NCBI GenBank assembly: GCA_050246815.1
Contig: JBFWVI010000008.1
Span: forward strand, 1,973-65,972
Reading direction: 5' to 3'
Source: Bdellovibrionales bacterium
Lineage (GTDB): Bacteria > Bdellovibrionota > Bdellovibrionia > Bdellovibrionales > UBA1609
Length of the DNA stretch: 64,000 bases
In this document: one piece after another, positions 3,996 through 33,022 of the stretch
Numbering within the stretch: position 1 is the first letter of the stretch
Layout of the letters: each line of letters starts with the position of its first letter
Made by a program: the position numbers and the translations under genes
The notes under the pieces: model-generated
Database searches by the model: none
What the model saw: only the letters and a program-made list of their open reading frames with translations
What the model was told of the DNA's origin: nothing

Positions 3996-5045
3996 ATGCG
4001 TGTTGCGGATAGCATGACCTATGATCAAGTGCGCGGGAACATCGGGAAAAACCGCACCCAGATGTCCGAGCTGCAAAACCAGGCGTCCACGCAAAAACGA
4101 GTGACCAAGCCATCGGATGACCCTGTTGCGGCCAGCCGGGTGTTGTCGTCGCGTATCGACTTTCAGGGCAACAAACAGTACGTCAAAAATTTAAATTATG
4201 CGAAGTCCTTCTTGGACGCCACCGATCAGGCCCTGGGCGATGTTTCTGAAAATCTGATGCGCATGAAAGAATTGGCGATTAGCCAGTCTAACGATGCCAG
4301 CGCGAACGATGAATCCAGGCGCGTGGTGGCCACCGAAGTCGAGCAAATTTTTAATCAGATCATCAGCATCGGCAATCGCAAACTGGGCGATCGATTTATT
4401 TTTGGCGGCTTCAAAACCCAAGACCGACCCTTCGACCAAAATGGCAACTACGCGGGCGACAGTGGCGAGATGATGCTTCACATCGACAAGGCCACGTTCT
4501 TGCCCATGAACATTGCGGGTAACCGAGTGTTTTTAGGCGAAGGCATGTCGGCCCAAGGCATTGTCCGCTCCACGCAAGAACAAGCGATCACGATTGAAGA
4601 GTACAACCAGCGCAAAAACGAGGCCGAAGACCCTTCGATCCAGCGCCCGCCCGAAATGCGAGGGCCAGCCGGCGCGCGCACAGAAGATATGCCCGCAGAC
4701 CAGGCCATTGGCTCGAATCTTTTTGAGGTGGCCAGACAATTAGAGATCGCGCTTCGCACCGATGACAAGCAGGGCGTGCAAGACACTCTGGATTTGCTGG
4801 ATGATGCTTTGACACAAGTGGTGTTGGCCCGTTCTCAAGTGGGCAGCCGTGGCATGGCTGTCGACAATTTGATGCAAAGCCTCGAAAAATCCAAAGTCGA
4901 CAATCAAGTGGCGATTTCGCAGCACGAAGACTCCGATGTTTTTTCAACCATCAGTGACATGAATAAAACCGAAAGCACGCTGCAGGCGACGCTTCAGACT
5001 TCGGGCAAACTGATTCAACCCTCGTTACTCAATTTTTTACGATGA
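3996..5045 (+). CDS. flgL: Hook-associated protein 3
   Basis: KPSDDPVAA, RFIFGG and SLLNFLR motifs; follows flgK. Confidence 0.95.
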   Translation: MRVADSMTYDQVRGNIGKNRTQMSELQNQASTQKRVTKPSDDPVAASRVLSSRIDFQGNKQYVKNLNYAKSFLDATDQALGDVSENLMRMKELAISQSNDASANDESRRVVATEVEQIFNQIISIGNRKLGDRFIFGGFKTQDRPFDQNGNYAGDSGEMMLHIDKATFLPMNIAGNRVFLGEGMSAQGIVRSTQEQAITIEEYNQRKNEAEDPSIQRPPEMRGPAGARTEDMPADQAIGSNLFEVARQLEIALRTDDKQGVQDTLDLLDDALTQVVLARSQVGSRGMAVDNLMQSLEKSKVDNQVAISQHEDSDVFSTISDMNKTESTLQATLQTSGKLIQPSLLNFLR

Positions 5046-5765: not shown

Positions 5766-5993
5766 ATGCTGGTTCTGACAAGAAAACTAGGCGAAAGTAT
5801 CGCCATCGACGATCACATCAAAATTCGCGTGGTTCAAATCAAAGGTAAACAAGTCCGTTTGGGTATCGAAGCGCCAAAGGACACCAAAATTCATCGCGAA
5901 GAAGTTTACCAAGCCATTCAAAACCAGAACCAAGAATCTTCGACCACCGCTCCAGACAGTGCCCGTGCGGTTTCTAAGCTTTTAAAGCCCTAA
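5766..5993 (+). CDS. csrA: Carbon storage regulator CsrA
   Basis: [12 protein letters not shown]...VRLGIEAPK...IHREE signature. Confidence 0.97.
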
Positions 5994-6100: not shown

Positions 6101-6637
6101 ATGAAAGTCCAAACGTCCAGATTTGGGGTGGTCGAGATCGGCAACGATGACTTGATCGAGTTTCCGGAAGGGCTCCTGGGCTTCAATCATTTGCGCAAGT
6201 TTGTTTTGCTGGACGATCCCACCGACGACATTTTTGCTTGGTTGCAAAGCTGCGAAGAGGCATCCATCGCCTTTCCCGTGCTTGAGCCTGAACTTTTTGC
6301 CGGTCAATATCATGTGCAGCTGACTAAACATGATTTAGAGGCTTTGAAGTTGCCTTTGGGTGAAGGTTTTAGAACCTTTATGGTGATCACCATCCCGCAG
6401 GACCCGACCCAAATGACGGCCAATATGAAGGCTCCCTTGGTGATCAACGTCAACCGCCGCCTTGGTCGCCAGTGCGTGTTGCAAGACAATCAATTGGCTA
6501 TTCGTGAGCCGATTTTCGCTAAGCTGCAGCAGCGCGTGGTGCAAAATCCGCAAGTGCCGATCAAAAGCCAGGGCCGTGAGCCCAAAATGCCAATGCGCCA
6601 AGCTCCGGTTCGGGGGCCTGAATCTTCGGCTGAATAA
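6101..6637 (+). CDS. fliW: Flagellar assembly factor / CsrA antagonist FliW
   Basis: TSRFG, FPEGLLGF, WLQS and MTANMKAP motifs; start moved to ATG 6101. Confidence 0.95.
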   Translation: MKVQTSRFGVVEIGNDDLIEFPEGLLGFNHLRKFVLLDDPTDDIFAWLQSCEEASIAFPVLEPELFAGQYHVQLTKHDLEALKLPLGEGFRTFMVITIPQDPTQMTANMKAPLVINVNRRLGRQCVLQDNQLAIREPIFAKLQQRVVQNPQVPIKSQGREPKMPMRQAPVRGPESSAE

Positions 6638-19645: not shown

Positions 19646-20403
19646 AAACGCAAACCCACCCGAGCGCTGTAAGTCGTATCGGGATAACGATCGATCTGCG
19701 CTGCAGCGAAAAGATCTTCGAAGTGAATGGTCAAACCCAAATAATTGTGGGTTTGCGTGACGGTGTGGCTGACGGTGTTGGATGTACCCAACTGCGGATC
19801 TGAAGGGTCCACCGTGCCGTTGGTGTTGTTGCCGCCGATAAAGGTGCCGGTGGCGCGTAGTTGGCCGACTCCAAAGTAAAGCGAGAATTGATTCACGTAA
19901 ATTCCCGCCACCAGGTCCGCGCCAAGGGCCGTGCTTTCAAAGTCATTGTTGATGTTGATATGATCCGCATGCATCAGCAGCGCCATGTTCACCGGTAAAA
20001 ACCGGGCTTCATAGAACGAGTAGCGAACCGCGCCACCGAAGCTGGTCATCTCGGAACCCGCCGTCATGGGTGCGGCATGCAGGAACAGGTCTAAATTGTT
20101 GTAAAGCCCTTTGCCGACGGTCAGGCGGGCGTAGCGCAATTCCTGGTCGCCATCAGGGGTACCGGCCCCCAGTTGGTTGAGTTCCTTGATGTCGATCAGC
20201 TCGAGTGATAACCCCACCTCAAAGCCACTGTAACCACCCAGCGGAAAGGGGTTGGTCAAAAGCTTTGTGCTGGTGGTCAGCCCCAGCATTTTGACCACCG
20301 CCACACGATCTTCTTTGCTGAGTTGTTTTGGGATCGTGACGGCAAAGGCGCGACCGCAAAAGAAAAAGAGTAAATTGAAAATGACAACTAAGCGGCTTTT
20401 CAT
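19642..20403 (-). CDS. Probable outer-membrane beta-barrel protein
   Basis: Signal peptide, amphipathic beta strands and terminal RVGLRF. Confidence 0.7.
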   Translation of the reverse strand: MKSRLVVIFNLLFFFCGRAFAVTIPKQLSKEDRVAVVKMLGLTTSTKLLTNPFPLGGYSGFEVGLSLELIDIKELNQLGAGTPDGDQELRYARLTVGKGLYNNLDLFLHAAPMTAGSEMTSFGGAVRYSFYEARFLPVNMALLMHADHININNDFESTALGADLVAGIYVNQFSLYFGVGQLRATGTFIGGNNTNGTVDPSDPQLGTSNTVSHTVTQTHNYLGLTIHFEDLFAAAQIDRYPDTTYSARVGLRF

Positions 20404-20445
20404 GCTTTAGGCATGATAGCGAAGGGACGATTGCCGAGTCACTGA

Positions 20446-21702
20446 TTAAGAGGCGGCTTTGATCAGATCTTGCAGGCTGCGCAGTGTCTCACGGGCTTGC
20501 AGGGATTGTTCGCCACGAGAGGTCGAGAGCTCTTGCAGCACGGCCACGAAGCGGTTGTAGTGGCTGACGTAAGGATTGCGTGTGCTGGCGCTACCATTGC
20601 CGGGGGTGGGACGATTGTATTTGGCGTTCAGATAGCGGCGGGCCGAGTCTTCTAACTGTTTGGTGGCCCAGATCACCGCGAAAATATCGTCGCTTGAGCG
20701 CATCACGCTTTCCAGAACCCACAAGTAAGTCACTTGTTCGTAAATATTCAGCTCGGCTTCGGCGCGTTGACGAATGCGTGAACCAAAGGCCTCGTGCTTA
20801 ATCACATCCAGTAAAATATGATAGCTGTCGGGACTTGGGGTGCGGCCGGCGGCCAAAACACCCAATTCGCGCATTTCGATGCGCGAATCTTGAAGCATCA
20901 AATTCACTAGAGTGTAAAACAAGGCTGAGCTGATCTGGCCGCTTTGAACGGCTTCAATTAGGCGAACTGTTTCCTTGAAGTTCGGTTTGTCGAGGATGCG
21001 TTTCTTCCACTCTTCCAATCCAGCCAGCGCGGCGTTCTTGTTGTTGTTCGTGGCCAATCCGCCGCCAAAGGTGGGGGTGGCGCTATTCGCGCCCAGGTCG
21101 TCGTTGTTTTTGTCTTCGTCATCTTCTTTTTGGTTTTCATCGTCGGCTTTTGCGACCGTTTCATCTTCTTCGCAATCGGGGAGATCTTCTTCGCCTTCTT
21201 GTTTCTGACCTTCAGCGCCGGCGGCGCCTTGGTGGGCGAGAGCGGTGGGATCAACGGCTTGTGCGTGGAGGGCTTGAAGATGGGCTGGCATCTGACCTTG
21301 TGATTCACCGCTGCCATCTTTGGGTTTGCATTTCTTTTGTCCATCTTTCGACTTATCGGCGTCCTTTTTTGTGCCTTGAGCCACTTTGTTGGCAGCCGTG
21401 GCTTGACCGGCGTTGGAATCGAATTGGCCTTGAGTCGGCGGAATCATCAGTGCTTTTTGATACGCCGGGATTGTGCGAATTGCATTCACAGTGTTGTGAG
21501 CCATCAAGGGTTTTCCCGGAATAGCACGATCCCGCATCAACGGTTGAACACGGCCGCGCATCACACTGCGGCCGGCTTTGCCGATGCCTGCCAACTCACC
21601 AGTGGCAGGGGTGCCCACCCACGACAAGCGTTTGGCAATTTCAAACGCCCCGCCGATGGCAAGAGCGATGACAAATAAGGATGTGGTGCCTAAGCGGCCC
21701 AT
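20446..21702 (-). CDS. Membrane-anchored hypothetical protein with acidic linker and helical C-domain
   Basis: 418-aa ORF with N-terminal TM helix and GGAG RBS. Confidence 0.7.
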   Translation of the reverse strand: MGRLGTTSLFVIALAIGGAFEIAKRLSWVGTPATGELAGIGKAGRSVMRGRVQPLMRDRAIPGKPLMAHNTVNAIRTIPAYQKALMIPPTQGQFDSNAGQATAANKVAQGTKKDADKSKDGQKKCKPKDGSGESQGQMPAHLQALHAQAVDPTALAHQGAAGAEGQKQEGEEDLPDCEEDETVAKADDENQKEDDEDKNNDDLGANSATPTFGGGLATNNNKNAALAGLEEWKKRILDKPNFKETVRLIEAVQSGQISSALFYTLVNLMLQDSRIEMRELGVLAAGRTPSPDSYHILLDVIKHEAFGSRIRQRAEAELNIYEQVTYLWVLESVMRSSDDIFAVIWATKQLEDSARRYLNAKYNRPTPGNGSASTRNPYVSHYNRFVAVLQELSTSRGEQSLQARETLRSLQDLIKAAS

Positions 21703-21730
21703 GAGTGGACTCCTTCCAATCTTCTGTATC

Positions 21731-21745
21731 GCAGGAAGCGTGCCG
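21731..21745 (-). promoter_or_regulatory. Candidate sigma54 promoter
   Basis: CGGCACGCTTCCTGC (GG-N10-GC) about 30 nt upstream of the start at 21702. Confidence 0.55.
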
Positions 21746-21897
21746 GGCGTGGCATGGCTAAGACTTTGATTTTACTTTTGATTTACGTGGAGCCAAAAAC
21801 CACCCAAAGGGGGAGTGTCCAGATGCAAGACACCTGGACAGGGCGTGAAAAAAACCCTACTCTTTTTCAATAGTTATGGCTGCTTGGGAGCAACTTG

Positions 21898-22818
21898 ATG
21901 AGTGACCAATTCGGCGCGCGCTTAAAAGCGGCTTCTGATGGCGATCAGAGGGCCTTGGCGCAGCTCTTATCGTGGGTGGAAAAGCAGGGCGCCCAGGCGC
22001 TTCGCTACCCTGAGCTGCTCAAAAGCGCTCGCCCGGCTTATCGAATTGGTATTACCGGTCCTCCCGGTGCGGGGAAGTCGACCCTTGTGGGCGGTCTAAT
22101 CAAAGAGCTGCGTAAAAAAAATCTGCGCGTGGCGGTTTTGGCCGTTGATCCTTCAAGCCCCTTTTCACACGGAGCAATTCTAGGTGATCGAATTCGTTAC
22201 AACGAGCACGTGTTGGATGACGGCGTTTTTATCCGCTCGTTGGGAACCAGGGGAAGCCTGGGCGGCCTAAGTGCTGCGGCTTACTTGATGTTGCGGGTTT
22301 TCGATGCCGTTGGTTTTGATGTGGTGCTGATCGAAACTGTAGGGGTCGGACAAACCGAACTTGAAATCATGAATGTAGCCGACAGCGTGGTGGTGGTTTT
22401 GGTGCCTGAGTCCGGTGATTCCGTGCAAGCGATGAAGGCCGGCCTACTTGAGATCGCCGACATCTTCGTGGTCAACAAGGCGGACCGCCCAGGCGCCGCC
22501 AGCATGGCCAAAGAACTGCAATTTATCGGCGAAATCGGACCCGAAAATCGACCTAAACCGAAAGTATTGATGACGAATGCGCTAAGCTTCGAAGGGGTTT
22601 TGGATTTAAGCGTTGAGTTGCTTGGCCGTCTGGGTGATTTAAATTTGATCAAGCTGCGCGAGCAGGCTTTGCGTTTGCGCCACGAGGCGCGCGCTTTGCT
22701 GCGTGCGGAATGGGAAAATTCGATCGAGACGAAGCTGAAGTCCTTGAAAAAAAACAGTGATCTGGCCAAGGTTCTTGGTGCTAAAACAGCCCCAGTGAAG
22801 AAAAAGAAACGTAAATAA
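21898..22818 (+). CDS. meaB: Methylmalonyl-CoA mutase-associated GTPase MeaB/ArgK
   Basis: GITGPPGAGKST, AVDPSSP, LGDRIR, ETVGVGQ and NKAD motifs. Confidence 0.92.
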   Translation: MSDQFGARLKAASDGDQRALAQLLSWVEKQGAQALRYPELLKSARPAYRIGITGPPGAGKSTLVGGLIKELRKKNLRVAVLAVDPSSPFSHGAILGDRIRYNEHVLDDGVFIRSLGTRGSLGGLSAAAYLMLRVFDAVGFDVVLIETVGVGQTELEIMNVADSVVVVLVPESGDSVQAMKAGLLEIADIFVVNKADRPGAASMAKELQFIGEIGPENRPKPKVLMTNALSFEGVLDLSVELLGRLGDLNLIKLREQALRLRHEARALLRAEWENSIETKLKSLKKNSDLAKVLGAKTAPVKKKKRK

Positions 22819-22952
22819 AAACTCTTCGCGCGCAGAATGGTTCGGTCCCCGAGCTTTCGCCGTAGGGACCATGCCCGCAGCCGATGGCCTGCCCCCCGAA
22901 TTCCCAAAACGATTCACCATTCAACTAAAAGTCTAGTCGGGCCGATACGTTT

Positions 22953-23285
22953 ATGACGCAATACGTTATGAAGGTAACAGGAATTGGCCCCACGCTGGGC
23001 CCTCAGTCTGTGGATGACGACGACGACCAGGAACTCGAGATCGCCGGTCTAGTCAACGAAACCTACGCCCCCGTCGACGAAACGGAGGCCGGCGCAGAGC
23101 CATCGGACGAGCAGCAAACTCGTGAGGGTTTGGCGCGTCTTTATGATTTTCTCAAGGCAAAACAAGAAAAGCGGACGTCGGGTCATCTTAAAAACAGTAG
23201 GCTAGAGCGAGCCCTTGGTGCGTATCATAAAATTATTGAGTCCGATTTAGAGTTGCGCGGACAAAATCTAAAGCGACGCGGCTAA
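22953..23285 (+). CDS. Small hypothetical protein
   Basis: 110-aa ORF with acidic N-half; GCCGATAC (sigma28 -10-like) at 22941-22948. Confidence 0.55.
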   Translation: MTQYVMKVTGIGPTLGPQSVDDDDDQELEIAGLVNETYAPVDETEAGAEPSDEQQTREGLARLYDFLKAKQEKRTSGHLKNSRLERALGAYHKIIESDLELRGQNLKRRG

Positions 23286-23391
23286 CTTTTTAATATTTAC
23301 TCAAGTCTATAAAATATCTTTTTATTTCAATAGTTTATAATTTTTTTCTGTGTCTCAATGTTGGAAAATAACGCAAAGCGACAGAATGTGC

Positions 23392-23418
23392 TTAAGTTAT
23401 AACTCAATGCGTCGAAAA
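23392..23418 (+). promoter_or_regulatory. Sigma28 promoter of fliC1
   Basis: TTAAGTTA-N11-GTCGAAAA versus consensus TAAAGTTT-N11-GCCGATAA. Confidence 0.6.
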
Positions 23419-23523
23419 GTTATAGGACTGCTGAAACGGATCTTAAGTCTTGTGTCTGTGGGCACCGCTTGTGGTGACCGGTCTGGGGAGGCCGGTGAAA
23501 CGCGCAAGCAGGAGGGTGCGTTT

Positions 23524-24351
23524 GTGTCATTTCGAATCAGTACCAACGTCGCGTCGTTAGCGGCGCAACGAAATCTGGGAAACTCCCAAAGAGCCACTGA
23601 AAAAGCGCTACTGGCCCTTTCATCAGGGTCCAGGATCAACCGCGCCTCTGACGATGCCGCCGGCTTTGCCATTGCCGAAAGCTTGCGTGGGCAATTGAGT
23701 GGCGTGAAGCAAGCTAAGAAAAATGCCGACACAGCGACATCCTTTATTCAAACCGCCGAGGGCGGACTTTCTGAGCAGAACAATATTTTAATCCGCTTGC
23801 GCGAGCTGGCAGTTTACTCGGCCAGCGACACTGTCGGCGATGAAGAGCGCGGCTATTTGAACATGGAATTCCAGCAGCTATCGGCGGAATTTGATCGCAT
23901 AGCGCGCTCAACGCGCTATGGGAATAAACAGCTGCTGACTGGTAACGGGGATGAACACACCTTTCAGATCGGCGCGTACCGAGGTGAAGAGAACGAAGTG
24001 AGTTTTAAACTCGACGCCAACACCACCGCGAGTGAGGTGGGTATTTCTGGTTTGTCGATCGACGATCAAGATAGTGCGACGGATGTTCTTGAAGACCTTG
24101 ATGAGGGCTTGCAAAAGGTGGCCTCGGCTCGGGCCTCGTTCGGCGCTATGCAGTCGCGCTTGCAACACGCGTCTGATCACTTGGCGGTGCAGATTGAAAA
24201 CGTCTCGGCCGCCCGATCGCAGATCGTGGACGCCGACATTGCCGAAGAAGCAGCTAATCTGGCGCAAAACCAGATCATTCAAGACGCCGGCATCGCTGTC
24301 TTGGCTCAGGCCAACGTGAACACCTCTCGCGTAGCGCGGCTGATTCAGTAA
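23524..24351 (+). CDS. fliC: Flagellin (fliC1, 275 aa)
   Basis: GTG start after AGGAGG; FRISTN, LSSGSRINRASDDAAG and GAMQSRL motifs. Confidence 0.95.
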   Translation: MSFRISTNVASLAAQRNLGNSQRATEKALLALSSGSRINRASDDAAGFAIAESLRGQLSGVKQAKKNADTATSFIQTAEGGLSEQNNILIRLRELAVYSASDTVGDEERGYLNMEFQQLSAEFDRIARSTRYGNKQLLTGNGDEHTFQIGAYRGEENEVSFKLDANTTASEVGISGLSIDDQDSATDVLEDLDEGLQKVASARASFGAMQSRLQHASDHLAVQIENVSAARSQIVDADIAEEAANLAQNQIIQDAGIAVLAQANVNTSRVARLIQ

Positions 24352-24395
24352 CTAGACCTTCGTCTTGGTTTTTGTTTTAAGTGATGGGCGGGCTT

Positions 24396-24424
24396 GGGCG
24401 GTTCTTTGTAAGAACCGCCTTTTT
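24396..24424 (+). terminator. Intrinsic terminator after fliC1
   Basis: GGGCGGTTCT/AGAACCGCCT stem followed by a T run. Confidence 0.75.
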
Positions 24425-24556
24425 AATTTTAAAGCCCACAAGTTCAACATCTCCGGATTGATAACGCGCCAAGTTATAAAATAAATTTTATTCAATAAAG
24501 CCCATCCCTTTCAAGCACAAGATGTGTCGCGTCATAAACTGGACTAGACCAAGGTC

Positions 24557-24583
24557 TAAAGCTTCCTAGACCAAAGCCGAGAA
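24557..24583 (+). promoter_or_regulatory. Sigma28 promoter of fliC2
   Basis: TAAAGCTT-N11-GCCGAGAA. Confidence 0.85.
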
Positions 24584-24590
24584 GTTAAGC

Positions 24591-24818
24591 GAACACGTTG
24601 GAGCACCTCGGGACTCATCCGTTTCAGCAGTCACTGTAAATGGATTAGAACCGAACCAAGTATCGTGAGGAGGGGCAGTCACCCCCTCTCGCGAGAACCT
24701 CCAGCAAAACATAATTAACCAAGACTCGGATGTCGCGGATGTGCGTCTTATAGCCGGTTGGCTGTGGGTCGACGCATGTTTTGATCCTCACGGTCGGGGA
24801 AAGAACGTTGGAGGTTCT
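24591..24818 (+). promoter_or_regulatory. Long structured 5' leader of fliC2
   Basis: Two hairpins with CAGUCA loops, a 12-bp anti-SD helix (24694-24705/24807-24818) and GGA motifs. Confidence 0.7.
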
Positions 24819-25649
24819 ATGGGCTTAAGAATCAATACTAACGTTGCCTCAATCGGAGCGCAGCGGGTATTAACGAAGCAGCAACAACGCTTGGAGCATT
24901 CGCAACAAGCATTGGCTTCAGGAACACGTATCGTTAAAGCAGCCGATGATGCTGCCGGCTTGGCCATCTCAGAAAACATCAAGGGCCAAATGGTCGGTAT
25001 CAAAATGGCTCGTAACAACTCATACAACGCACAATCGTTGATTCAGGTCAGCGAGGGCGGATTGAACGAAATCAACAACATCTTGATTCGTTTGCGCGAA
25101 CTGGGTGTGCAAGCGGCCTCGGACACAGTCAGCGATGTTGAGCGTGAATTTTTGGATCAGGAAGCGCAGCAATTGCGTATGGAGTCGGATCGGATCGCGC
25201 GTTCGACACGTTTTGGTAACAAAACTTTGCTGGATGGTTCAGGCGAAGAGTTTGAATACCATGTCGGCCCATTTGCCGATGAAGATGAAAACGTCATTCG
25301 CTATCAAATCTCGGCTGATGCCACCAACAGCACCCTGGGCATCGATGGCGTCGGAGTGTCAGATAAAGACAGCGCTCGCGACACTTTAAGTTCGGTGGAC
25401 GAAGCTTTAGTGAAAATCGGTAAAATGCGCGCCGACTTCGGTGCCGTGCAAAGTCGATTGCAGACCACCACGAGCAATTTGGACATTCAATACGAGAACT
25501 TGTCCGCCGCAAAATCACGTATTTCGGATGCCGACGTGGCTTACGAGTCTTCAGAGATGGCTTCGTCGCAAATATTGCAAAGCGCTTCAGTGGCCGTGTT
25601 GGCGCAAGCCAATCAAAACGGCTCCTTCGCGCTGCGCTTGTTAAGCTAA
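24819..25649 (+). CDS. fliC: Flagellin (fliC2, 276 aa)
   Basis: MGLRINTNV, KAADDAAGLAI and GAVQSRL; ATG 24819 after GGAGG. Confidence 0.96.
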   Translation: MGLRINTNVASIGAQRVLTKQQQRLEHSQQALASGTRIVKAADDAAGLAISENIKGQMVGIKMARNNSYNAQSLIQVSEGGLNEINNILIRLRELGVQAASDTVSDVEREFLDQEAQQLRMESDRIARSTRFGNKTLLDGSGEEFEYHVGPFADEDENVIRYQISADATNSTLGIDGVGVSDKDSARDTLSSVDEALVKIGKMRADFGAVQSRLQTTTSNLDIQYENLSAAKSRISDADVAYESSEMASSQILQSASVAVLAQANQNGSFALRLLS

Positions 25650-25847
25650 ATTATTTCATCAGTCTTGTGAGGCTCGGCCGCACCTTGTGCGGCCGGGACT
25701 AAATCAGCTTTTTTGAGGACTCAAGATGCGGTCCTCTGTATCGCGATGCAAATGTTTTTTAAACGTTTTGAGTTTTAGACAGGTAGCCCACAGCATCCTG
25801 TCTTAAGCCCGCCCTGGGGTCGCCCCACGAACCCCAGGGTTTTTTTT
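25650..25847 (+). ncRNA. Structured ~200-nt 3' UTR of fliC2, candidate 3'UTR-derived sRNA
   Basis: Three hairpins before the terminator; one loop displays GCCCACAGC complementary to flagellin leaders. Confidence 0.45.
25811..25847 (+). terminator. Intrinsic terminator after fliC2 3' UTR
   Basis: GCCCTGGGGT/ACCCCAGGGT stem followed by a T run. Confidence 0.85.
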
Positions 25848-25887
25848 AAGCGGCGTCGACACTTCCTCAACCTCTCTTTTAAGACTT

Positions 25888-26502
25888 TTATTTTTTAACG
25901 AAGGTGGCTTTTTTGGCGTCGTTGACGCGAACGAGTTCGTAGCTTTTGGAGTTGAGCACTTTGAGCGTGAATTTGTAGTTGCTGCTGGTGGTGCCCTCGC
26001 AGAAATTGTCTTTGCAGGTCATTTCAACGCCGCCGCCGCAGTTGATAAAAGTGACGCTGACGTTGCTTAGGACACTGTTGTTGTAAGCGGTTTTGATTCT
26101 CTGGTCGCAGAAATAACGGGCATTGTCGGTGTATTCGCCGTCTTCAAGAACAACGGGGGGAGCGACACTCGTGCAGACCTGACCGGCCAATAAATCCGCG
26201 GTGCTGGCGATCATTTTTTTAAGGTCGCGGCAGACCACGTCGAAATCGCCATCGGCCCGGCGTTGCAACGATAGAATACCCGAGGGCTTTGAGGTCTTTT
26301 TGTTGGGGCAAACGTTGTTCAGTTCCAAATCCAGATCGGTCACGGTCTCACGATTGCCGTTGGTGCAAACCACGTCATAGGTGCCGTCGGCCTTTTGTTG
26401 CATCACCGCAACTTCATCGATCGAAAGAATATCAAAATCGGCTTGTGCCGCGACGGCAAAAAACAGAGCGGAGCTGAGCAGGCTATAAATAAAAAATCGC
26501 AT
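25888..26502 (-). CDS. Secreted Cys-containing hypothetical protein
   Basis: Signal peptide ending AQA; internal duplication QQKADGTYDVVC / QRRADGDFDVVC. Confidence 0.75.
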   Translation of the reverse strand: MRFFIYSLLSSALFFAVAAQADFDILSIDEVAVMQQKADGTYDVVCTNGNRETVTDLDLELNNVCPNKKTSKPSGILSLQRRADGDFDVVCRDLKKMIASTADLLAGQVCTSVAPPVVLEDGEYTDNARYFCDQRIKTAYNNSVLSNVSVTFINCGGGVEMTCKDNFCEGTTSSNYKFTLKVLNSKSYELVRVNDAKKATFVKK

Positions 26503-26726
26503 ATTGAGTCCTTTGTTTGTTGAGCAACGTCAGTGTTGCGAACGTAGTCTTTTAAGGAAGCCGGTCGAAGTCAAAAAAACTGGTTCACTCAGGTGCCAAA
26601 TCTGTTTGGCCCTGTTCGGGCAAGGCTTTCACTTGTTTTTGGTCTCAAATCGAGACGCCCTTAAAATGAGACGGCGGTATGGGTAAGACTTCATATTTGC
26701 CGGATGAAATATGACGAAAAGCACCT

Positions 26727-27740
26727 ATGGGCGAGAGAAAACTGAAGCTTGTCCCTCAAGGCGAAGAGGCAGCCGTCAAGGAATCTCATGCAATAGATAG
26801 TGAGTTCCTTGCGGTGCCTCCGGAACAGATTTTATCCCGTGCGCATGCGCTTTCGGATCTCTTCGTTCGCTTAAGCAGCGGCCGTCTGGTCAAGGTGGCC
26901 CACAAAGACGAAAAAATCGACCGCGAACGCATCGAAAGAATGGCCCACAAAAACGTCAATGAACTCTACGTCATGCGCCACGATTTTTCAGGGGTGATTC
27001 AAAATCTGATTTTGCATATGCGAGAAAATGCCACGGCCCCCACAGACAACGACAAATCGATCAATGAGTATTTTCAGGTGGCCCAATCGGTTTTGACTGA
27101 AGTGTCCAAGCTGCCGATTAGCGACGAAGCGATCGGGCATGCCATCGAAGTCACGCAAGAGCTGGCCACGCGCCTCAACGAAGTGGACGATATTGCAAAG
27201 GGCCTTAAATTGATTTTAGGTCTTGGCGAAAAGCATTCACGACATGCAATGGGCTGTGTTGTGGTCTCCAATTGGCTGGCCCGTGCCATGCGCTGGAGTG
27301 CTCCTCGCGTCCTGCAGCCGTTGACCTTGGGCGCCTTCATGCATGATGTCGGCCTGAAGGAGCTGCCGGTCGAGCTGCTGAATAAAGAGCGTATGCATTA
27401 TAGCGCTGAAGAAGTGGCGCTTTACGAAACACATCCCACGCGGGGCGTGATGATTTTGCGCAGCTTCAACGCCATGCCGGCCGAAGTGCTGCAAATCGTG
27501 CAAGAGCACCACGAAATGCCCAATGGGCAAGGCTTTCCAAACCACATCCGCGGCGAGCGCATGTTCCCATTGGCCAAAATCGTGTCCTTTGCCAACCTGC
27601 TGTCTCACGAAATGCTCGATGCCTTTCTTGTGCATAAATCTTTCTCGGTCGAGGGGATGATTGAACGCATCGACTTGATTTATAAGACCATGTACGGCAG
27701 CGAGATGCACAAAGCGGCCAAATCCATCTTCAAAAAATAG
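26727..27740 (+). CDS. HD-GYP domain protein (c-di-GMP phosphodiesterase family)
   Basis: MHDVG, HP and EHHEMPNGQGFP motifs. Confidence 0.85.
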   Translation: MGERKLKLVPQGEEAAVKESHAIDSEFLAVPPEQILSRAHALSDLFVRLSSGRLVKVAHKDEKIDRERIERMAHKNVNELYVMRHDFSGVIQNLILHMRENATAPTDNDKSINEYFQVAQSVLTEVSKLPISDEAIGHAIEVTQELATRLNEVDDIAKGLKLILGLGEKHSRHAMGCVVVSNWLARAMRWSAPRVLQPLTLGAFMHDVGLKELPVELLNKERMHYSAEEVALYETHPTRGVMILRSFNAMPAEVLQIVQEHHEMPNGQGFPNHIRGERMFPLAKIVSFANLLSHEMLDAFLVHKSFSVEGMIERIDLIYKTMYGSEMHKAAKSIFKK

Positions 27741-27876
27741 GGATCAAATATTTTCTTTTTAAGGCCGCGTGTCGGCAACGCTCCGAGTGGCGGACGCCGT
27801 TATATTTCTTTTTCCATTCTATTGCAGTCAGATAAGGCTTTAGAATTGCATTTTTTCCTCCGCGTAGGAGGAAAAA

Positions 27877-28413
27877 ATGTTTAATTCCCTAAAATATGCT
27901 AAAAAATTAGAAGCCGCTGGCTATTCCCGCGAACAAGCGGAAATGCATGTGCAAATTTTGAGTGAGATTATGGAAAGCAACTTGGCCTCAAAAGAAGAGA
28001 TGAAAGACCTCACCGCGGTGACGCGGCAAAGCTTTAAAGACCATACTTTTGAAATGCAGCAGCTTTTTAAAGAACATACTCATGCTATGGATCAAAGGTT
28101 TAAAGAATACACTCATGCGATGGATCAAAGGTTTAAAGAATACACGCATACTGCAGATGAAAGGTTTAAAGAGTACACGCATACTGCGGATGAAAGGCTT
28201 AAAGAGTACACGCATACTGCGGACCAAAGATTGAAAGACCACAACATTGAAACAAATCAGAAAATTGAAGAGCTTCATCAAAAGATAGATCGCGTGCGCA
28301 TCGAATTAAGCGGCGAAATCAAAATTTCCGAACAGCGTATGACGGTCAAGCTTGGCACAATTGTTTCAATCGCGATTGGTTTGGCGGTAACTCTGGTCAA
28401 GCTTGTGGCCTGA
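27877..28413 (+). CDS. DUF1640/CCDC90-family coiled-coil protein with C-terminal TM anchor
   Basis: MFNSLKYAKKLEAAGYSREQAE head, LASKE neck, repeat stalk, KLGTIV tail; AGGAGG RBS. Confidence 0.85.
   Translation: MFNSLKYAKKLEAAGYSREQAEMHVQILSEIMESNLASKEEMKDLTAVTRQSFKDHTFEMQQLFKEHTHAMDQRFKEYTHAMDQRFKEYTHTADERFKEYTHTADERLKEYTHTADQRLKDHNIETNQKIEELHQKIDRVRIELSGEIKISEQRMTVKLGTIVSIAIGLAVTLVKLVA
28033..28230 (+). repeat. Six tandem 33-bp units encoding 11-aa repeats
   Basis: Units such as TTTAAAGAATACACTCATGCGATGGATCAAAGG (FKEYTHAMDQR); a partial seventh follows. Confidence 0.95.
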
Positions 28414-28594
28414 TTGATCGAATTCAGAACTTCCTGGCCGCAGGCCTCAGGTCTAGGGGCTGTGACCTCGACCTTTGGTCTTGGCGACCAAGGTCCTACC
28501 GCACCGACTCCATACTTATTATTATTCCCACGGCAAAATCCCAAACTAAGGTCCAGTTCTACACCGACCATGGTCCAGTTTGACTGGACTCGAC

Positions 28595-28621
28595 TTTAGT
28601 TCGCCCCGACCTGGCCGAAAG
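28595..28621 (+). promoter_or_regulatory. Sigma28 promoter of fliC3
   Basis: TTTAGTTC-N11-GCCGAAAG, near-identical to the fliC4 promoter. Confidence 0.75.
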
Positions 28622-28628
28622 GTTTGTT

Positions 28629-28846
28629 AGAAGCAAGAGCGGATCTTGAAAGTCCGCCAGGCGAGAGTTCATCACTTGAGTGACTGCTTGTGATGAAATC
28701 GCTACCAGCCTGGCATGACCCATCAAAATTTGCTCCAACGTGTTCAACCAAGCGCAAAGGATGCGCGCACCCGGGGTGCGGCTCTGTGGGTAGAGCCCCT
28801 TCGGGTAGCGAAACGGATTTTGAACAAACCCAAAGGAGGACCTTTT
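28629..28846 (+). promoter_or_regulatory. Long structured 5' leader of fliC3
   Basis: Nested hairpins, a GUGACUGC loop, an AAGGA hairpin (28752-28766) and a GUGGGU loop (28786-28791). Confidence 0.7.
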
Positions 28847-29680
28847 ATGGGTCTCAGGGTCACAACCAATATTCCATCGATTAGCGCGCAGCGCACGATG
28901 GCCAGTTCACAGCGCGAAATTCAAAAGAGTTTCTCGCAGCTTTCTTCCGGTTCGCGGATCACCAAGGCAGCTGATGATGCAGCCGGCTTGTCGATCAGCG
29001 AAACTTTAAAATCCACCGTTCGAGGTTACGTGCAAGCGCAACGTAACGCCAACGATGGGATCTCGATGGTGCAAGTCTCTGAAGGGGGCTTGGGCGAGAT
29101 CAGCAACATCTTGACCCGCATGCGCGAGTTGGGTGTGCAAGCCGCCTCGGACACGGTCGGCGATGTCGAACGTGGCTTTATCGACAAAGAGGTTCAACAG
29201 TTGAAAAACGAAATGGAGCGTATCGCGAAAACCACTCGTTGGGGTTCGCAGAATCTGCTCGATGGCAGCGGTGAAGAATACGGCTTCCAGGTCGACATCA
29301 ACAATGACGACTTCAATGACCGTATTAGCTTCGACGCCAGCCAACAAGACGCCACAATCGGCACCTTGGGTGTTGATGGCTTTGATTTTTCGACCAAAGA
29401 TGGTGCACGTGATGCCCTTGAAATGTTAGAAACATCGCAACGCCAAGTGAACGGTTATCGTGCCAACTTAGGCGCGATTCAAAACCGCCTGATCTCGACC
29501 ACCGAAAACTTAGGTGTCGCGATCGAAAACTTCTCGGCAGCCAATTCGCGAGTTCGCGATGCGGACGTCGCGCAGTCTTCAGCTGAACTGGCTCGCAACA
29601 ACATCTTGCTGCAAGCCAACGTGGGTGTCTTGGCGCAAGCCAATCAGCAACCCGGTTTAGCAATGCGTTTGGTCTCTTAA
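28847..29680 (+). CDS. fliC: Flagellin (fliC3, 277 aa)
   Basis: MGLRVTTN start after AAAGGAGG; LSSGSRITKAADDAAG and LGAIQNRL. Confidence 0.97.
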   Translation: MGLRVTTNIPSISAQRTMASSQREIQKSFSQLSSGSRITKAADDAAGLSISETLKSTVRGYVQAQRNANDGISMVQVSEGGLGEISNILTRMRELGVQAASDTVGDVERGFIDKEVQQLKNEMERIAKTTRWGSQNLLDGSGEEYGFQVDINNDDFNDRISFDASQQDATIGTLGVDGFDFSTKDGARDALEMLETSQRQVNGYRANLGAIQNRLISTTENLGVAIENFSAANSRVRDADVAQSSAELARNNILLQANVGVLAQANQQPGLAMRLVS

Positions 29681-29703
29681 TTTATAATTTGATTTGTAAA
29701 GTG

Positions 29704-29769
29704 TTGGAGGGGTCTCCTTTGCCTCTCCGGTACCTACCTACCCAAGGAGGTTTTCCTCCTTGGGGTACT
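29704..29769 (+). ncRNA. Two-hairpin 3' UTR RNA motif, copy 1
   Basis: Hairpin with CUCCUUU loop, then a bulged hairpin (UACCUAC bulge, UUUU loop); covaries with 31000-31066. Confidence 0.7.
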
Positions 29770-29812
29770 ACATAGACTAGCCCGGACCGTCCTGAAACCA
29801 GACTGAACCGCA

Positions 29813-29842
29813 GTCGGTGAGATCAAGGTCGGTGAGATCAAG
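29813..29842. repeat. Perfect 15-bp tandem duplication
   Basis: GTCGGTGAGATCAAG x2, with degenerate similar words downstream. Confidence 0.9.
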
Positions 29843-29947
29843 GGCTGGCCCCCATCGAACGACCAGGTATGATACGTCGAAGGTCGTGAAATCCAAGATC
29901 AACGTCCAGAAATAGCACGCCTTCAGTCCAGAAACGCTGGACGCGAC

Positions 29948-29974
29948 TTCAGTTGGCCCCGACCTCGCCGAATA
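29948..29974 (+). promoter_or_regulatory. Sigma28 promoter of fliC4
   Basis: TTCAGTTG-N11-GCCGAATA. Confidence 0.75.
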
Positions 29975-30143
29975 ACTAGGCGTGAGTTGCATGGAACCCA
30001 GACGGTCAAGTCCAGGTCCAGGTGATCACAGGGTAACAAATATTAATAACCAGCATTACGGATAATGCCTTCTTCCGCTGGCCCAGTAGGTAGGGACATG
30101 AGGATGGAATACGGACGTTTTCGCCAACACAAGGAGAAGTACC

Positions 30144-30977
30144 ATGGGATTACGAGTTACAACGAACGTCGCGTCGATCAACGCACAGAAGTCGATGGCT
30201 TCCAGTCAGCGTGAGATCCAACGCAGTTTCGCACAATTGTCATCAGGTTCACGCATCACCAAAGCCGCCGACGACGCAGCGGGGCTTTCGATCAGCGAAA
30301 CGCTGAAGTCCACCATCCGCGGTTACACGCAGGCGCAACGTAACGCCAACGACGGTATCTCGATGGTGCAAGTCGCAGAGGGTGGCCTGGGCGAGATCAG
30401 CAATATCTTGACCCGCCTGCGGGAGTTGGGCGTGCAAGCGGCCTCAGACACGGTGGGTGATGTCGAGCGCGGCTTCATCGACAAAGAGGTTCAACAATTG
30501 AAAAATGAAATGGATCGTATCGCGCAATCGACACGTTTCGGCAAATCGAAACTCTTAAACGGCGATGGCGAAGAATACGCTTTCCAAGTCGATATCAATA
30601 ACAACGACTTTGAGGATCGAATTAACTTTAATGCCGCAGAATTGAAAGCGACCTCAGACGCTTTGGGTGTGGATGGATTTGATTTCTCGGATAAGCTTAA
30701 TGCTCGCGAAGGTTTGGAAGTGTTAGAAGACGCTCAGCGCATGGTGAACGGAATGCGTGCGAACCTTGGCGCAATTCAAAACCGCCTGGTGTCGACCACA
30801 GAAAACTTAGGCGTGGCAATCGAGAACTTCTCGGCTGCGAACGCTCGTGTTCGCGACACAGACGTGGCGCAATCTTCGGCAGAACTGGCCCGCAACAACA
30901 TCTTGTTGCAAGCCAACGTGGGTGTTTTGGCTCAAGCCAATGCCATGCCGCAAGCCGCTTTGCGCCTGATTGGTTAA
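30144..30977 (+). CDS. fliC: Flagellin (fliC4, 277 aa)
   Basis: Close paralog of fliC3; AAGGAG RBS. Confidence 0.97.
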   Translation: MGLRVTTNVASINAQKSMASSQREIQRSFAQLSSGSRITKAADDAAGLSISETLKSTIRGYTQAQRNANDGISMVQVAEGGLGEISNILTRLRELGVQAASDTVGDVERGFIDKEVQQLKNEMDRIAQSTRFGKSKLLNGDGEEYAFQVDINNNDFEDRINFNAAELKATSDALGVDGFDFSDKLNAREGLEVLEDAQRMVNGMRANLGAIQNRLVSTTENLGVAIENFSAANARVRDTDVAQSSAELARNNILLQANVGVLAQANAMPQAALRLIG

Positions 30978-30999
30978 TATTAAAATTGAATTTGAGAAT

Positions 31000-31066
31000 T
31001 GAGGCGGTGGCTTCTCCGCTGCTTCAGTACTTACCTACCCGGGCGGGTTTTCTCGCCCGGGGTGCT
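31000..31066 (+). ncRNA. Two-hairpin 3' UTR RNA motif, copy 2
   Basis: 11-bp hairpin with CUUCU loop, then a bulged hairpin (UACCUAC bulge, UUUU loop). Confidence 0.7.
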
Positions 31067-31152
31067 ATTTGGGGTTTGAGATGTAAGTCTTTTGTCTAGT
31101 TTCTGGATTCTAGCCTCTTCAGGCGACGGAAAGTTGCCGAATCCAAGACTGG

Positions 31153-31524
31153 ATGAATGTAAAAAGTTTGACTCCCAATTTAAGCGCGCTAGACCCTCGA
31201 CTTCGCACCGAGGCCAAAGACAATGTGCGCCTGCAAAACAGCGGCGACCGCGATGCGGATGGCCGTCGGCAGCAGAATGAGCCTGAACACAAGCGCCACT
31301 TGAACGAATCCGAGTTTGAAACAGCCTTGGAAACCTTAAAGAAAAACGCCGCCGTTACCGCTCACAACCTACAGATTCGAGTTGAACAACATGAAGATCA
31401 CCGGGTCATCTTCATCGAGGATCGGGCCGGGCAAGTGATTCGCCGTCTGTCAGAGGCCGACTTGTGGCTGGTCACTCGAGAAAATGATCGTCCCACGGGA
31501 AAAATTTTAGATAAAGCCGGCTAG
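31153..31524 (+). CDS. FlaG-like protein
   Basis: Located between flagellin and fliD; VIFIEDRAGQVIRRL...GKILDK resembles the FlaG C-terminus; GCCGAATC at 31136. Confidence 0.65.
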   Translation: MNVKSLTPNLSALDPRLRTEAKDNVRLQNSGDRDADGRRQQNEPEHKRHLNESEFETALETLKKNAAVTAHNLQIRVEQHEDHRVIFIEDRAGQVIRRLSEADLWLVTRENDRPTGKILDKAG

Positions 31525-31651
31525 TACTACGCGCGCCTTAAGTCCTGTCACCATGCCGCCGCATCACGAATGTCCAAGCCAACTAATTGACTCACGTTTT
31601 TCCTCTTAAATCGGTGAAACTAGAAGGGTACAAGCGCCGGAGGATGCTCGC

Positions 31652-33022
31652 TTGCCAATTACGTTTGGTGGAATTAACACAGGCTTACCCCCGAACATCG
31701 TCGACCAGTTGGTCGAAGCGGAACGCATTCCTATTCGCAATATGGAAGCGCAAAAGACCAAACAAGAAACCAAACTCAAATTGGTTCAGGATCTTGAAAG
31801 TAAATTGGCGGCGCTCAATGGTTCTTTGGCAGGTTTAGCGTCGGCGAAGGGTTTCAAAGATATTAAGCTAAACTCGGGCAATCCAAATGTGATCACCGGG
31901 GCGGTTGATCCCGACGCCAGCGTCACGGGCAGTTGGAATGTTGAGGTGGTCGAACTGGCGCAAAAGGCCGCGGCGATCACAAATGGTTTTCCCGACAAAG
32001 ATAAAACTCAAATCGGCACGGGCTACTTTCGCTTTCATACAGCGGACGGCAAAAAAGATGTTTACGTGAACGGTAAAAACAACACTCTTGAAAAGGCGGC
32101 CGAAACCATCAACGCCTCAGGCATCGGCGTGCGAGCAACCGTCTTGAATGATCGTAAAGACCCCGACAATCCCTACCGACTGATGATTTCTGGCGAAGCC
32201 GTTGGTGGCGATAACCGCATTGATTATCCGACGCTTTATTTCTTGGACGGCGATCAGGATCTTTACTTCGATGAAGAGCGCGAGGCAAAGAACGGTCGTG
32301 TGAAGGTGGATGGCTTTGAGTTTGAAGTCAGCGACAACAAAGTCAACGATGCCATCCCAGGTGTGACGCTAGAGTTGCGCCAAGCCGCACCTGGGCAGCA
32401 AGTGAATATCTCGGTCAAAGAAGATATGGAAATCGTAACCGGCAAAGTGAAGACATTTGTAGACGGTTTGAACGCTGTGCTGGGCTTTATTCAGCAACAA
32501 AACAGAATGGACAAAGACACCGACACCTCACAGACCTTGGGCGGCGACAGCATGCTGCGTTCGATCCAAAATCGCTTAGAGAGGTTGGTGCAGGATCCGC
32601 AGTACGGAATTGACGGACCGATCAAGCGCTTGAATCAAATCGGCATCACCTTTAACCGTGGCGGCACCGTGGATTACAAGGAAGAGGCCTTCAACCAAGT
32701 TTTGGCGCGGGACCCCGTTGCGGTACAAAAGTTTTTGGCCGGAGATGGTTTTAACACGGGCTTTATTAGTGCCGTGAAGCGCGAAGTGCAGACCGTGTTG
32801 AACGGACAGTTCGGGCAGGTGGCGATACGAAAAAAGGGCATGCAGGATCGCATCAACCAAATGGACGATCGGATTGCAATGAAAGAACGTCAGTTGCAAA
32901 CCAAAGAAGAAAGCTTACGGCGCAAGTTTAGCCGTTTGGAAGAAACCATGTCGCGACTTAAGTCCCAGGGTGGGGCTTTGGGCGGAATGGGCGGCGGCGG
33001 CGGTGGCCTGGCGCAAGGATGA
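31652..33022 (+). CDS. fliD: Filament cap protein
   Basis: TTG start after GGAGG; FGGINTGL...QLVEAERIP, IPGVTLEL and LRRKFSRLE motifs. Confidence 0.95.
   Translation: MPITFGGINTGLPPNIVDQLVEAERIPIRNMEAQKTKQETKLKLVQDLESKLAALNGSLAGLASAKGFKDIKLNSGNPNVITGAVDPDASVTGSWNVEVVELAQKAAAITNGFPDKDKTQIGTGYFRFHTADGKKDVYVNGKNNTLEKAAETINASGIGVRATVLNDRKDPDNPYRLMISGEAVGGDNRIDYPTLYFLDGDQDLYFDEEREAKNGRVKVDGFEFEVSDNKVNDAIPGVTLELRQAAPGQQVNISVKEDMEIVTGKVKTFVDGLNAVLGFIQQQNRMDKDTDTSQTLGGDSMLRSIQNRLERLVQDPQYGIDGPIKRLNQIGITFNRGGTVDYKEEAFNQVLARDPVAVQKFLAGDGFNTGFISAVKREVQTVLNGQFGQVAIRKKGMQDRINQMDDRIAMKERQLQTKEESLRRKFSRLEETMSRLKSQGGALGGMGGGGGGLAQG

Follow-up and report, generated by a model that had tools for sequence, protein, structure and literature searches.

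Can the messenger RNAs (mRNAs) of sister flagellin genes regulate one another by base pairing between their leaders? The question is raised by a stretch of 64,000 nucleotides (nt; hereafter the window, whose numbering we use throughout) from a Bdellovibrionales bacterium (GCA_050246815.1, contig JBFWVI010000008.1, 1,973-65,972, forward strand), in which the leaders of two flagellin genes, fliC2 and fliC3, are complementary at two separate sites. The names fliC1, fliC2 and fliC3 are positional and need not match those in Bdellovibrio bacteriovorus. Many bacteria build their filaments from several flagellins in a fixed order. In B. bacteriovorus, that order is FliC3, C5, C1, C2, C6 (PMC2791853). 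Our best explanation, which we consider probable from the comparison of related genomes, is that the fliC2-type leader serves as a base-pairing hub for the fliC3 and fliC1 leaders and that flagellins are regulated through this pairing.

The preliminary description of this DNA had matched the predicted 5' end of the fliC2 mRNA (element A) to a segment of the fliC3 leader (A') and the tip of a fliC2 hairpin (B) to the loop of a fliC3 hairpin (B'). The elements are the following:

24591-24605, + strand: element A (GAACACGTTGGAGCA), the predicted 5' end of the fliC2 mRNA, from sequence and alignment.
24617-24645, + strand: fliC2 hairpin 1, stem ATCCGTTT / TAAATGGAT, by local folding; its loop carries B.
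24664-24693, + strand: fliC2 hairpin 2, loop CAGTCA, with GCAGTCAC at 24675-24682, by local folding and alignment.
28669-28697, + strand: fliC3 hairpin, stem TTCATCAC (28669-28676) / GTGATGAA (28690-28697), by local folding.
28731-28745, + strand: element A' (TGCTCCAACGTGTTC), the exact reverse complement of A, from the fliC3 leader sequence.

Re-reading the sequence recovered all quoted strings in place, with exact complementarity over 15/15 nt for A/A' and 10/10 nt for B/B'. A starts at the eighth base past the -10-like box GCCGAGAA (24576-24583), which is part of a TAAAG-N15-CCGAGA motif; local folds put B (AGCAGTCACT, 24626-24635) and B' (AGTGACTGCT, 28679-28688) in hairpin loops, as had been proposed, and the repeat of GCAGTCAC in a second fliC2 hairpin was confirmed as well. 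The 15-mer is unique to the A and A' sites in the whole genome (3,402,612 bases) and the 10-mer occurs at three places; among the flagellin leaders of this genome, A and B are found only in that of fliC2 and B' and A' only in that of fliC3. The longest Watson–Crick run between the two leaders was 15 nt, a length reached by 0/1000 dinucleotide shuffles (mean 7.5, maximum 14), and the control pair fliC1–fliC3 had a longest run of 7 nt, equalled by 725/1000 shuffles. The predicted duplex energies were -26.1 kcal/mol for A:A', with opening costs of 5.8 and 6.4 kcal/mol, and -15.6 kcal/mol for B:B', with opening costs of 4.7 and 2.4 kcal/mol.

Comparison of both leaders with 40 relatives using BLAST found the fliC2 promoter and the first ~100 nt of its leader conserved across the order and a short island exactly at A' kept in the fliC3-type leaders of other genera. 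We scanned one genome per species, covering 185,579 species, for the pattern GAACAYGTTGGAG-N15-45-AGCAGTCA and obtained 53 stretches: 46 from named Bdellovibrio-group metagenome-assembled genomes (MAGs), one from a further MAG ("Proteobacteria bacterium") that is Bdellovibrionales-like and has the same flagellin leaders, five from unrelated taxa and resembling chance hits, and one from an "uncultured bacterium" without placement. A relaxed pattern matched 42 of 401 genomes across the phylum, with the full A consensus confined to genomes of the same order; the matches from other orders (16 genomes) were GAATA or GTTGAA variants at about chance level, the reversed-pattern control giving 7 matches.

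From the fetched loci, many of which had been retrieved with the exact A...B pattern, we extracted 205 flagellin leaders (167 after removal of duplicates) and recognized three recurrent classes, types 2 and 3 being delimited by at most two mismatches to a 13-nt consensus. Type-2 leaders (55) have a sigma-28 motif, A, and then a hairpin with CAGCAGTCACT in its loop; in 41 of the 55, another hairpin follows that carries CAGTCA in its loop and precedes a CCTCCA motif. Across the order, conservation of sequence and structure in this type is limited to the first ~115 nt, the rest being variable, and A is invariant or nearly so in 52 aligned leaders, with a median predicted pairing probability of 0.41. 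Type-3 leaders (~30) have a hairpin with a GAGTGACTGC loop, a spacer of ~40 nt and then A', at a distance from the ATG that is nearly constant (95-139 nt), after which come small hairpins, commonly with GGA loops. In type-1 leaders (~30), GTGACTGCTGAAAyGAAc directly follows the sigma-28 motif. Among the de-duplicated leaders, A was found after a sigma-28 motif in 55 genome labels and A' in 31, and complementarity between orthologous leaders turned out to be present across the Bdellovibrionales.

A and A' also covary. The genome labels numbered 63, or 60 after merging identical ones; in 30 of them, leaders of types 2 and 3 occur together and make up 33 pairs. Partners from the same genome formed on average 13.6 Watson–Crick pairs over 15 positions (14.1 with G-U) versus 12.9 (13.65) for shuffled partners, a fit reached in 0/20000 permutations. 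Positions 1-11 of A paired with A' in 33/33 same-genome pairs, and true mismatches were found only at position 12 (five), position 13 (one) and the ragged positions 14-15. Position 6 was C:G in 26 pairs, U:A in 7 and mixed in none; position 4 was U:A in one pair of 33; and several matched changes were seen at positions 13-15 (in G002, G001, G034, JAKFYE, G026 and G040). A maximum likelihood tree of the type-2 flagellins (53 sequences) requires three changes to T at position 6 (the starred branches force three), and all three lineages with C-to-T in A have the compensating G-to-A in A'. One genome, JADJOV, fell outside the 33 pairs by the mismatch cutoff, and its position 6 was checked separately. 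In another family of the order (G157, G132 and G033), the longest complementary run between leaders resembling types 2 and 3, GTTGTACACGTTG / CAACGTGTACAAC, measures 13, 12 and 11 nt, respectively, and represents a compensated change from A:U to U:A at position 2.

One-sided changes within the 13-nt core, scored for a sense–sense duplex, comprised 15 G-U and 0 A-C, which argues that the sense RNAs pair and not the DNA. Covariation of A and A', left by the preliminary description to be sought in related genomes, was thus found, with the within-genome fit exceeding the between-genome fit and at least three independent lineages at position 6. At the level of sequence comparison, these leaders are shown to be under selection for complementarity between their sense RNAs.

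The loops behave similarly. In local folds, the CAGTCA core was unpaired and enclosed by at least four base pairs (bp) in 52/52 cases of hairpin 1 and 41/41 of hairpin 2, and by the same criterion the TGACTG core was exposed in 28/30 fliC3-type hairpins. RNAalifold recovered hairpin 2 from 52 type-2 5' domains, with compensatory changes at six pairs; a global run on 34 type-3 leaders recovered no structure because their variable parts align poorly. The loop motif rarely varies, and its changes come with a matching change in the partner: hairpin 2 reads CAATCAC where the fliC3 loop reads GTGATTG, a combination seen in G023 and, as an independent event, in G157 and G132. In G033, hairpin 2 matches B' over 10 nt. 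The preliminary description had assigned the contact with B' to hairpin 1, which held in part: hairpin 1 has the longer match in 19/26 comparisons (5 ties, hairpin 2 longer in 2; means 8.5 vs 7.15 nt), but it is hairpin 2 that shares in the compensated loop change of G023, G157 and G132. From these patterns, either fliC2 hairpin could kiss the fliC3 loop.

A further partner is indicated by the 5' end of the fliC1 mRNA:

23426-23441, + strand: fliC1 5'-terminal seed (GACTGCTGAAACGGAT), the exact reverse complement (16/16) of 24617-24632.

The complementary segment comprises the 5' arm and loop of fliC2 hairpin 1, and the seed is the predicted 5' end of the fliC1 mRNA, with its onset ~7 nt past the -10-like box. 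In 23 genomes, the longest run between seed and hairpin 1 was 15.1 nt within a genome versus 11.5 nt when shuffled (0/2000), and the seed tracks the variable stem of its own genome (e.g., GGTTCATTTCAG, GTTTGTTTTAG, TTCGTTTCAG and TCACTTCAG). The predicted duplex energy is -27.4 kcal/mol, with opening costs of 6.1 kcal/mol for the seed and 15.4 kcal/mol for the hairpin. Two complete genomes of genus g45 have neither hairpin 1 nor a type-1 leader among their six flagellin leaders; in G033, both are present and are complementary over 12 + 9 nt around a 1-nt bulge. By its predicted pairing, the design is that of toehold-mediated strand displacement, in which the loop would pair first and the seed would then compete with the 3' arm for the 5' arm. 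On this comparative evidence, the pairing system is larger than fliC2–fliC3, the fliC1 5' end being a putative additional partner that the preliminary description had missed.

We propose that the hub is formed by the first ~115 nt of the fliC2-type leader, whether these belong to the full mRNA or exist as a 5' fragment. A (13-15 nt), at the single-stranded 5' end of the hub, would pair with A' of the fliC3-type leader, one of the two CAGUCAC loops of the hub would kiss the GUGACUG loop of the fliC3 hairpin, and the 5' end of the fliC1-type mRNA would invade hairpin 1, using the loop as a toehold and then displacing the 5' arm. Such pairing would couple the translation and/or decay of three sigma-28-driven flagellin mRNAs, and the resulting regulation would be layered on CsrA–FliW control and set the relative amounts or the order of the paralogous flagellins. 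The pairing of mRNAs by kissing loops and a toehold, as suggested in the preliminary description, is supported comparatively by the covariation, the restriction of one-sided changes to G-U and the presentation of the motifs in loops, while the heteroduplex itself is something that we infer.

A more detailed version of the proposal, which we hold only tentatively, includes a switch in cis that involves two further elements of the fliC2 leader:

24695-24705, + strand: CCTCCA motif after hairpin 2, resembling an anti-Shine–Dalgarno (anti-SD) sequence and predicted to pair with the fliC2 Shine–Dalgarno (SD) sequence.
24807-24817, + strand: fliC2 SD region (GTTGGAGGTTC), from sequence and folding.

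CCUCCA would close the fliC2 SD, A, which mimics the SD in the close relatives of this genome, could open it, and capture of A by fliC3 would keep fliC2 shut. By prediction, base pairing hides the fliC2 SD (median pairing probability 0.95), chiefly through the CUCC motif (median 5.7 expected bp), and leaves A mostly free. A stronger form of the proposal, which we regard as unlikely, is a hard-wired RNA–RNA relay, with the fliC1 5' end entering fliC2 hairpin 1 and the fliC2 5' end and loop entering the fliC3 leader; mRNAs held in one complex would then program the order, the stoichiometry and perhaps the place of flagellin production. If true, this would be a post-transcriptional assembly-line code for a multi-flagellin filament.

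Several points weigh against these proposals. The high overall complementarity is partly built in by the definition of the classes by consensus and the fetching of loci with an exact pattern, and the only results that escape this bias are the within- versus between-genome permutation, the associations at single positions and the excess of G-U over A-C. Since the genomes are related, their counts cannot be taken as independent events, and the tree was built from flagellin genes and does not represent a species phylogeny; for independence, we rely on position 6 with its three origins, on positions 2 and 4, which changed separately, and on the loop change, which arose twice. The cost of opening hairpin 1 leaves a small net gain for its pairing with fliC1. 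Within the cis version, pairing of A with CUCC is predicted in a minority of leaders only (median 0.13 expected bp), SD pairing increases in 14 of 53 leaders when A is blocked, decreases in 4 and stays the same in 35, and A can be seen as an SD mimic (TTGGAG at the SD) in only 15/55 leaders; in these folding models, a role of A as a cis anti-anti-SD switch in fliC2 is a weak, minority model.

The alternative that survives best differs from our explanation in molecular form only and can be seen as a variant of it: the active partner would be a short RNA of ~100-190 nt from the fliC2 promoter, made by attenuation or processing, which acts in trans on fliC3 and fliC1 as a leader-derived small RNA (sRNA). 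We consider this possible, if not the form that we favor. It would suit the confinement of conservation to the first ~115 nt of the type-2 leader and the presence of a weak terminator-like hairpin inside the leader (24757-24773); sigma-28-dependent sRNAs derived from untranslated regions (UTRs) exist in Escherichia coli (PMC10578931), and B. bacteriovorus has attack-phase (AP)-specific sRNAs with FliA promoters, which we could not place on flagellin leaders (PMC3627812). On the other side, we found no convincing intrinsic terminator after hairpin 2 and saw no second sigma-28 motif between hairpin 2 and the fliC2 start, so that the mRNA must carry the same 5' domain.

Two observations touch on such an RNA. 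The weak hairpin is followed by GCATGTTTTG (together 24757-24783), lies ~170-190 nt from the predicted start and could free a short leader RNA. In B. bacteriovorus HD100, APsRNA3 and APsRNA4 are located at 561,854-561,981 and 562,984-563,081; they share a strand, their starts are separated by 1,130 nt, and the first has a FliA promoter (PMC3627812). The spacing resembles the 1,165 nt between the predicted starts of fliC1 and fliC2; that the two RNAs are flagellin leaders may well be wrong, and the lead was not used as evidence. The rough position that we take Bd0604/Bd0606 to have speaks against it.

An improbable reading is that the mRNAs never meet and the complementarity is a by-product of separate functions in cis, A being a CsrA site or SD mimic and A' the cis anti-SD of fliC3, both under a shared ribosome-binding constraint. 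The window does contain csrA and fliW, GGA is present in A, which in this genus looks like the SD region of fliC2, and one long fold from this genome pairs A' with the fliC3 SD and start codon. The last of these had suggested A' as a conserved cis anti-SD of fliC3, a candidate that we rejected: pairing between A' and the ribosome-binding site is not predicted in relatives (median 0.02 expected bp over 34 type-3 leaders) and amounts to 0.0 expected bp in this genome when the folding window ends at ATG+12. Moreover, no GGAG/CUCC core includes the covarying positions 2, 4 and 6, family f10 has A and A' without GGAG/CUCC and yet a complementarity of 11-13 nt, the similarity of A to the SD is limited to the 15/55 leaders mentioned above, and the complementary loops and the fliC1 seed would be left unexplained.

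We give still less credence to an origin at the DNA level, with A and A' as oppositely oriented sites of a DNA-binding regulator or as remains of an inverted duplication homogenized by gene conversion. The minus strand of the fliC3 leader reads A...B, such that one pattern finds both leaders, and an orientation-independent protein site would coevolve too. The asymmetry between G-U and A-C changes, however, has no rationale in DNA, and the hairpins whose loops present the motifs have stems that covary; the A–B spacing differs between the two leaders (20 vs 42 nt here) and varies among genomes, and by reading their spacers share no similarity. A tract of 13-15 nt would also be too short for recombination-based homogenization. 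Finally, a chance match noticed post hoc can be dismissed as having a negligible probability: an inverted match of 15 nt is expected about twice in a 64-kb window (N^2/2 x 4^-15), but here both copies lie in the leaders of paralogous genes, are conserved and covary across the order, and no shuffle reaches their length.

Leader-to-leader pairing, the reading that we prefer, concerns a region with four flagellin genes on the + strand, namely fliC1, fliC2, fliC3 and a fourth starting at 30144. The genes, promoters and terminator are the following:

23392-23419, + strand: fliC1 sigma-28-like promoter, TTAAG-N16-CGAAAA, from sequence; the same motif precedes type-1 leaders elsewhere.
23524-24351, + strand: fliC1 flagellin gene with a GTG start, by Pfam.
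24396-24430, + strand: fliC1 intrinsic-terminator-like hairpin (24396-24420) and T run, an 11-pair stem followed by TTTTTAATTTT.
24557-24583, + strand: fliC2 sigma-28-like promoter, TAAAG-N15-CCGAGAA, kept before A in type-2 leaders.
24819-25649, + strand: fliC2 flagellin gene, by Pfam Flagellin_N and Flagellin_C.
28595-28620, + strand: fliC3 sigma-28-like promoter, TTTAG-N15-CCGAAA, in a region conserved in relatives.
28847-29680, + strand: fliC3 flagellin gene, by Pfam Flagellin_N and Flagellin_C.

All three genes tested, fliC1, fliC2 and fliC3, contain both Flagellin_N and Flagellin_C, and the fourth was recognized by a genome-wide Flagellin_N match only. The whole genome has seven flagellin genes and a weaker Flagellin_N match at 4014-4379 of the window, just upstream of csrA and fliW. 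By sequence, the promoters follow the sigma-28 (FliA) pattern of a TAAAG/TTAAG -35 element, N15-16 and a CCGATA-like -10 element, and the starts derived from them are predictions. In B. bacteriovorus, the FliA consensus TTAAG-N16-CCGATA is found at 92/140 attack-phase promoters, and comparison with this consensus indicates that the fliC2 motif TAAAG-N15-CCGAGA resembles a sigma-28 promoter (PMC3627812). Given the strong terminator-like hairpin after fliC1 and the separate sigma-28 motifs, fliC2 should have its own transcript.

Around the -35 of the type-2 promoter (24545-24575 and in relatives), we observed GACC-N2-4-GGTC/GGCC palindromes and repeated (A/G)GACC words, which may be a site for an upstream regulator; similar GGTCCAG/CTGGAC words occur upstream of fliC3 and the fourth flagellin. 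The latter also has a tandem direct repeat, GGTGAGATCAAGGTC GGTGAGATCAAGG, at 29816-29843, upstream of its promoter.

The window further contains the genes for CsrA and FliW and, in the fliC3 leader, a hairpin resembling a CsrA site:

5766-5921: csrA, beside the flagellin-like gene with the weaker Flagellin_N match.
6155-6514: fliW, in the same neighborhood.
28752-28766, + strand: small hairpin GCGCA-AAGGA-TGCGC with GGA in its loop, from sequence, with equivalents in the type-3 alignment.

Besides this hairpin, fliC3 has an AAGGAGG SD, and fliC2 has TTGGAG both in A and at its SD, a resemblance to CsrA sites at the sequence level only. The combination of hairpins with GGA loops, SDs containing GGA and the presence of csrA and fliW suggests that the pairing acts on top of CsrA–FliW control. 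Among the other flagellin leaders, three (C22:30870, C22:34239 and C5:41680) have repeated AAGGA hairpin loops and AAGGAGG SDs in the manner of classical CsrA targets.

Two more motifs recur in the leaders. In each of the three leader types, CUGUGGG(C/U), replaced by GUAGGU in many relatives, lies in or beside the loop of a small hairpin (TCTGTGGGCAC at 23455-23465 in fliC1, GGCTGTGGGTCG at 24760-24771 in fliC2 and GGCTCTGTGGGTAGAGCC at 28780-28797 in fliC3) and may be a shared protein-binding or pairing element. In many genomes, TCG(C/T)T(A/T)(G/C)CAG is conserved immediately downstream of the B' hairpin of fliC3-type leaders, here at 28699-28709; in this genome, TCGCTACC within that motif could pair with GGTAGCGA at 28806-28813.

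In the part of the literature that we searched (main texts), we found no description of pairing between flagellin leaders or of these motifs, and the Rfam 15 covariance models gave 0 matches at E <= 1 over 20000-33000 of the window on both strands. Judged by the comparative data, the new aspects are that the partners are leaders of paralogous flagellin mRNAs, that three mRNAs are linked and that the elements match no curated RNA family; the motifs delimit three or more new families of structured leader RNAs that Rfam lacks. The covarying leader pairings offer a concrete hypothesis for the ordering of flagellins, testable by mutation, and point to a previously undescribed RNA-to-RNA control of flagellar filament building in this order of predatory bacteria.

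Among known systems, CsrA–FliW control of flagellin leaders has been described for hag of Bacillus subtilis (PMC13443453) and flaA of Campylobacter jejuni (PMC4894983). The present locus is alike in having csrA and fliW as well as GGA-loop hairpins and SDs with GGA in fliC3 and other flagellin leaders; it differs in that CsrA binding does not account for the leaders being complementary or for the way in which they covary; the elements that pair come in addition to the GGA sites. Sigma-28-dependent UTR-derived sRNAs are part of the flagellar regulon of E. coli (PMC10578931), and two sRNAs tune flagellar gene expression in C. jejuni (PMC11187230); in those systems too, base-pairing RNAs from late flagellar promoters or flagellar UTRs feed back on flagellar genes. 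Those RNAs belong to different phyla and have no sequence relation to the leaders studied here, whose proposed targets are sister flagellin leaders with reciprocal complementarity.

In common with trans-acting base-pairing RNAs, the leaders have a conserved, accessible seed and a conserved target site with compensatory substitutions, and, as in kissing complexes, both complementary segments are predicted to be exposed in hairpin loops of ~6-8 nt. The sRNA OxyS and the fhlA mRNA of E. coli form a two-site kissing complex with loop–loop contacts of ~7-9 bp. There, as here, two short and separate complementary sites bring two structured RNAs into a stable complex, predicted in our case; OxyS, however, is a dedicated noncoding RNA, whereas here protein-coding paralogues supply the leaders on both sides, one of the two sites is single-stranded at the 5' terminus, and the proposed network includes a third mRNA. 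Regulation in trans between mRNAs is known from the Listeria hly 5' UTR and prsA2 and from irvA and gbpC of Streptococcus mutans, and kissing antisense pairs are known from plasmids (CopA/CopT and RNAI/RNAII). These share with our proposal a segment of one mRNA acting in trans on another mRNA and the nucleation of pairing by kissing loops, but they are single pairs in single species or plasmids; the flagellin leaders would form a three-node network of paralogues, conserved over an order and with selection on the pairing shown by sequence comparison. If true, this would be a rare natural case of mRNA–mRNA cross-regulation with an architecture of toehold and kissing loops.

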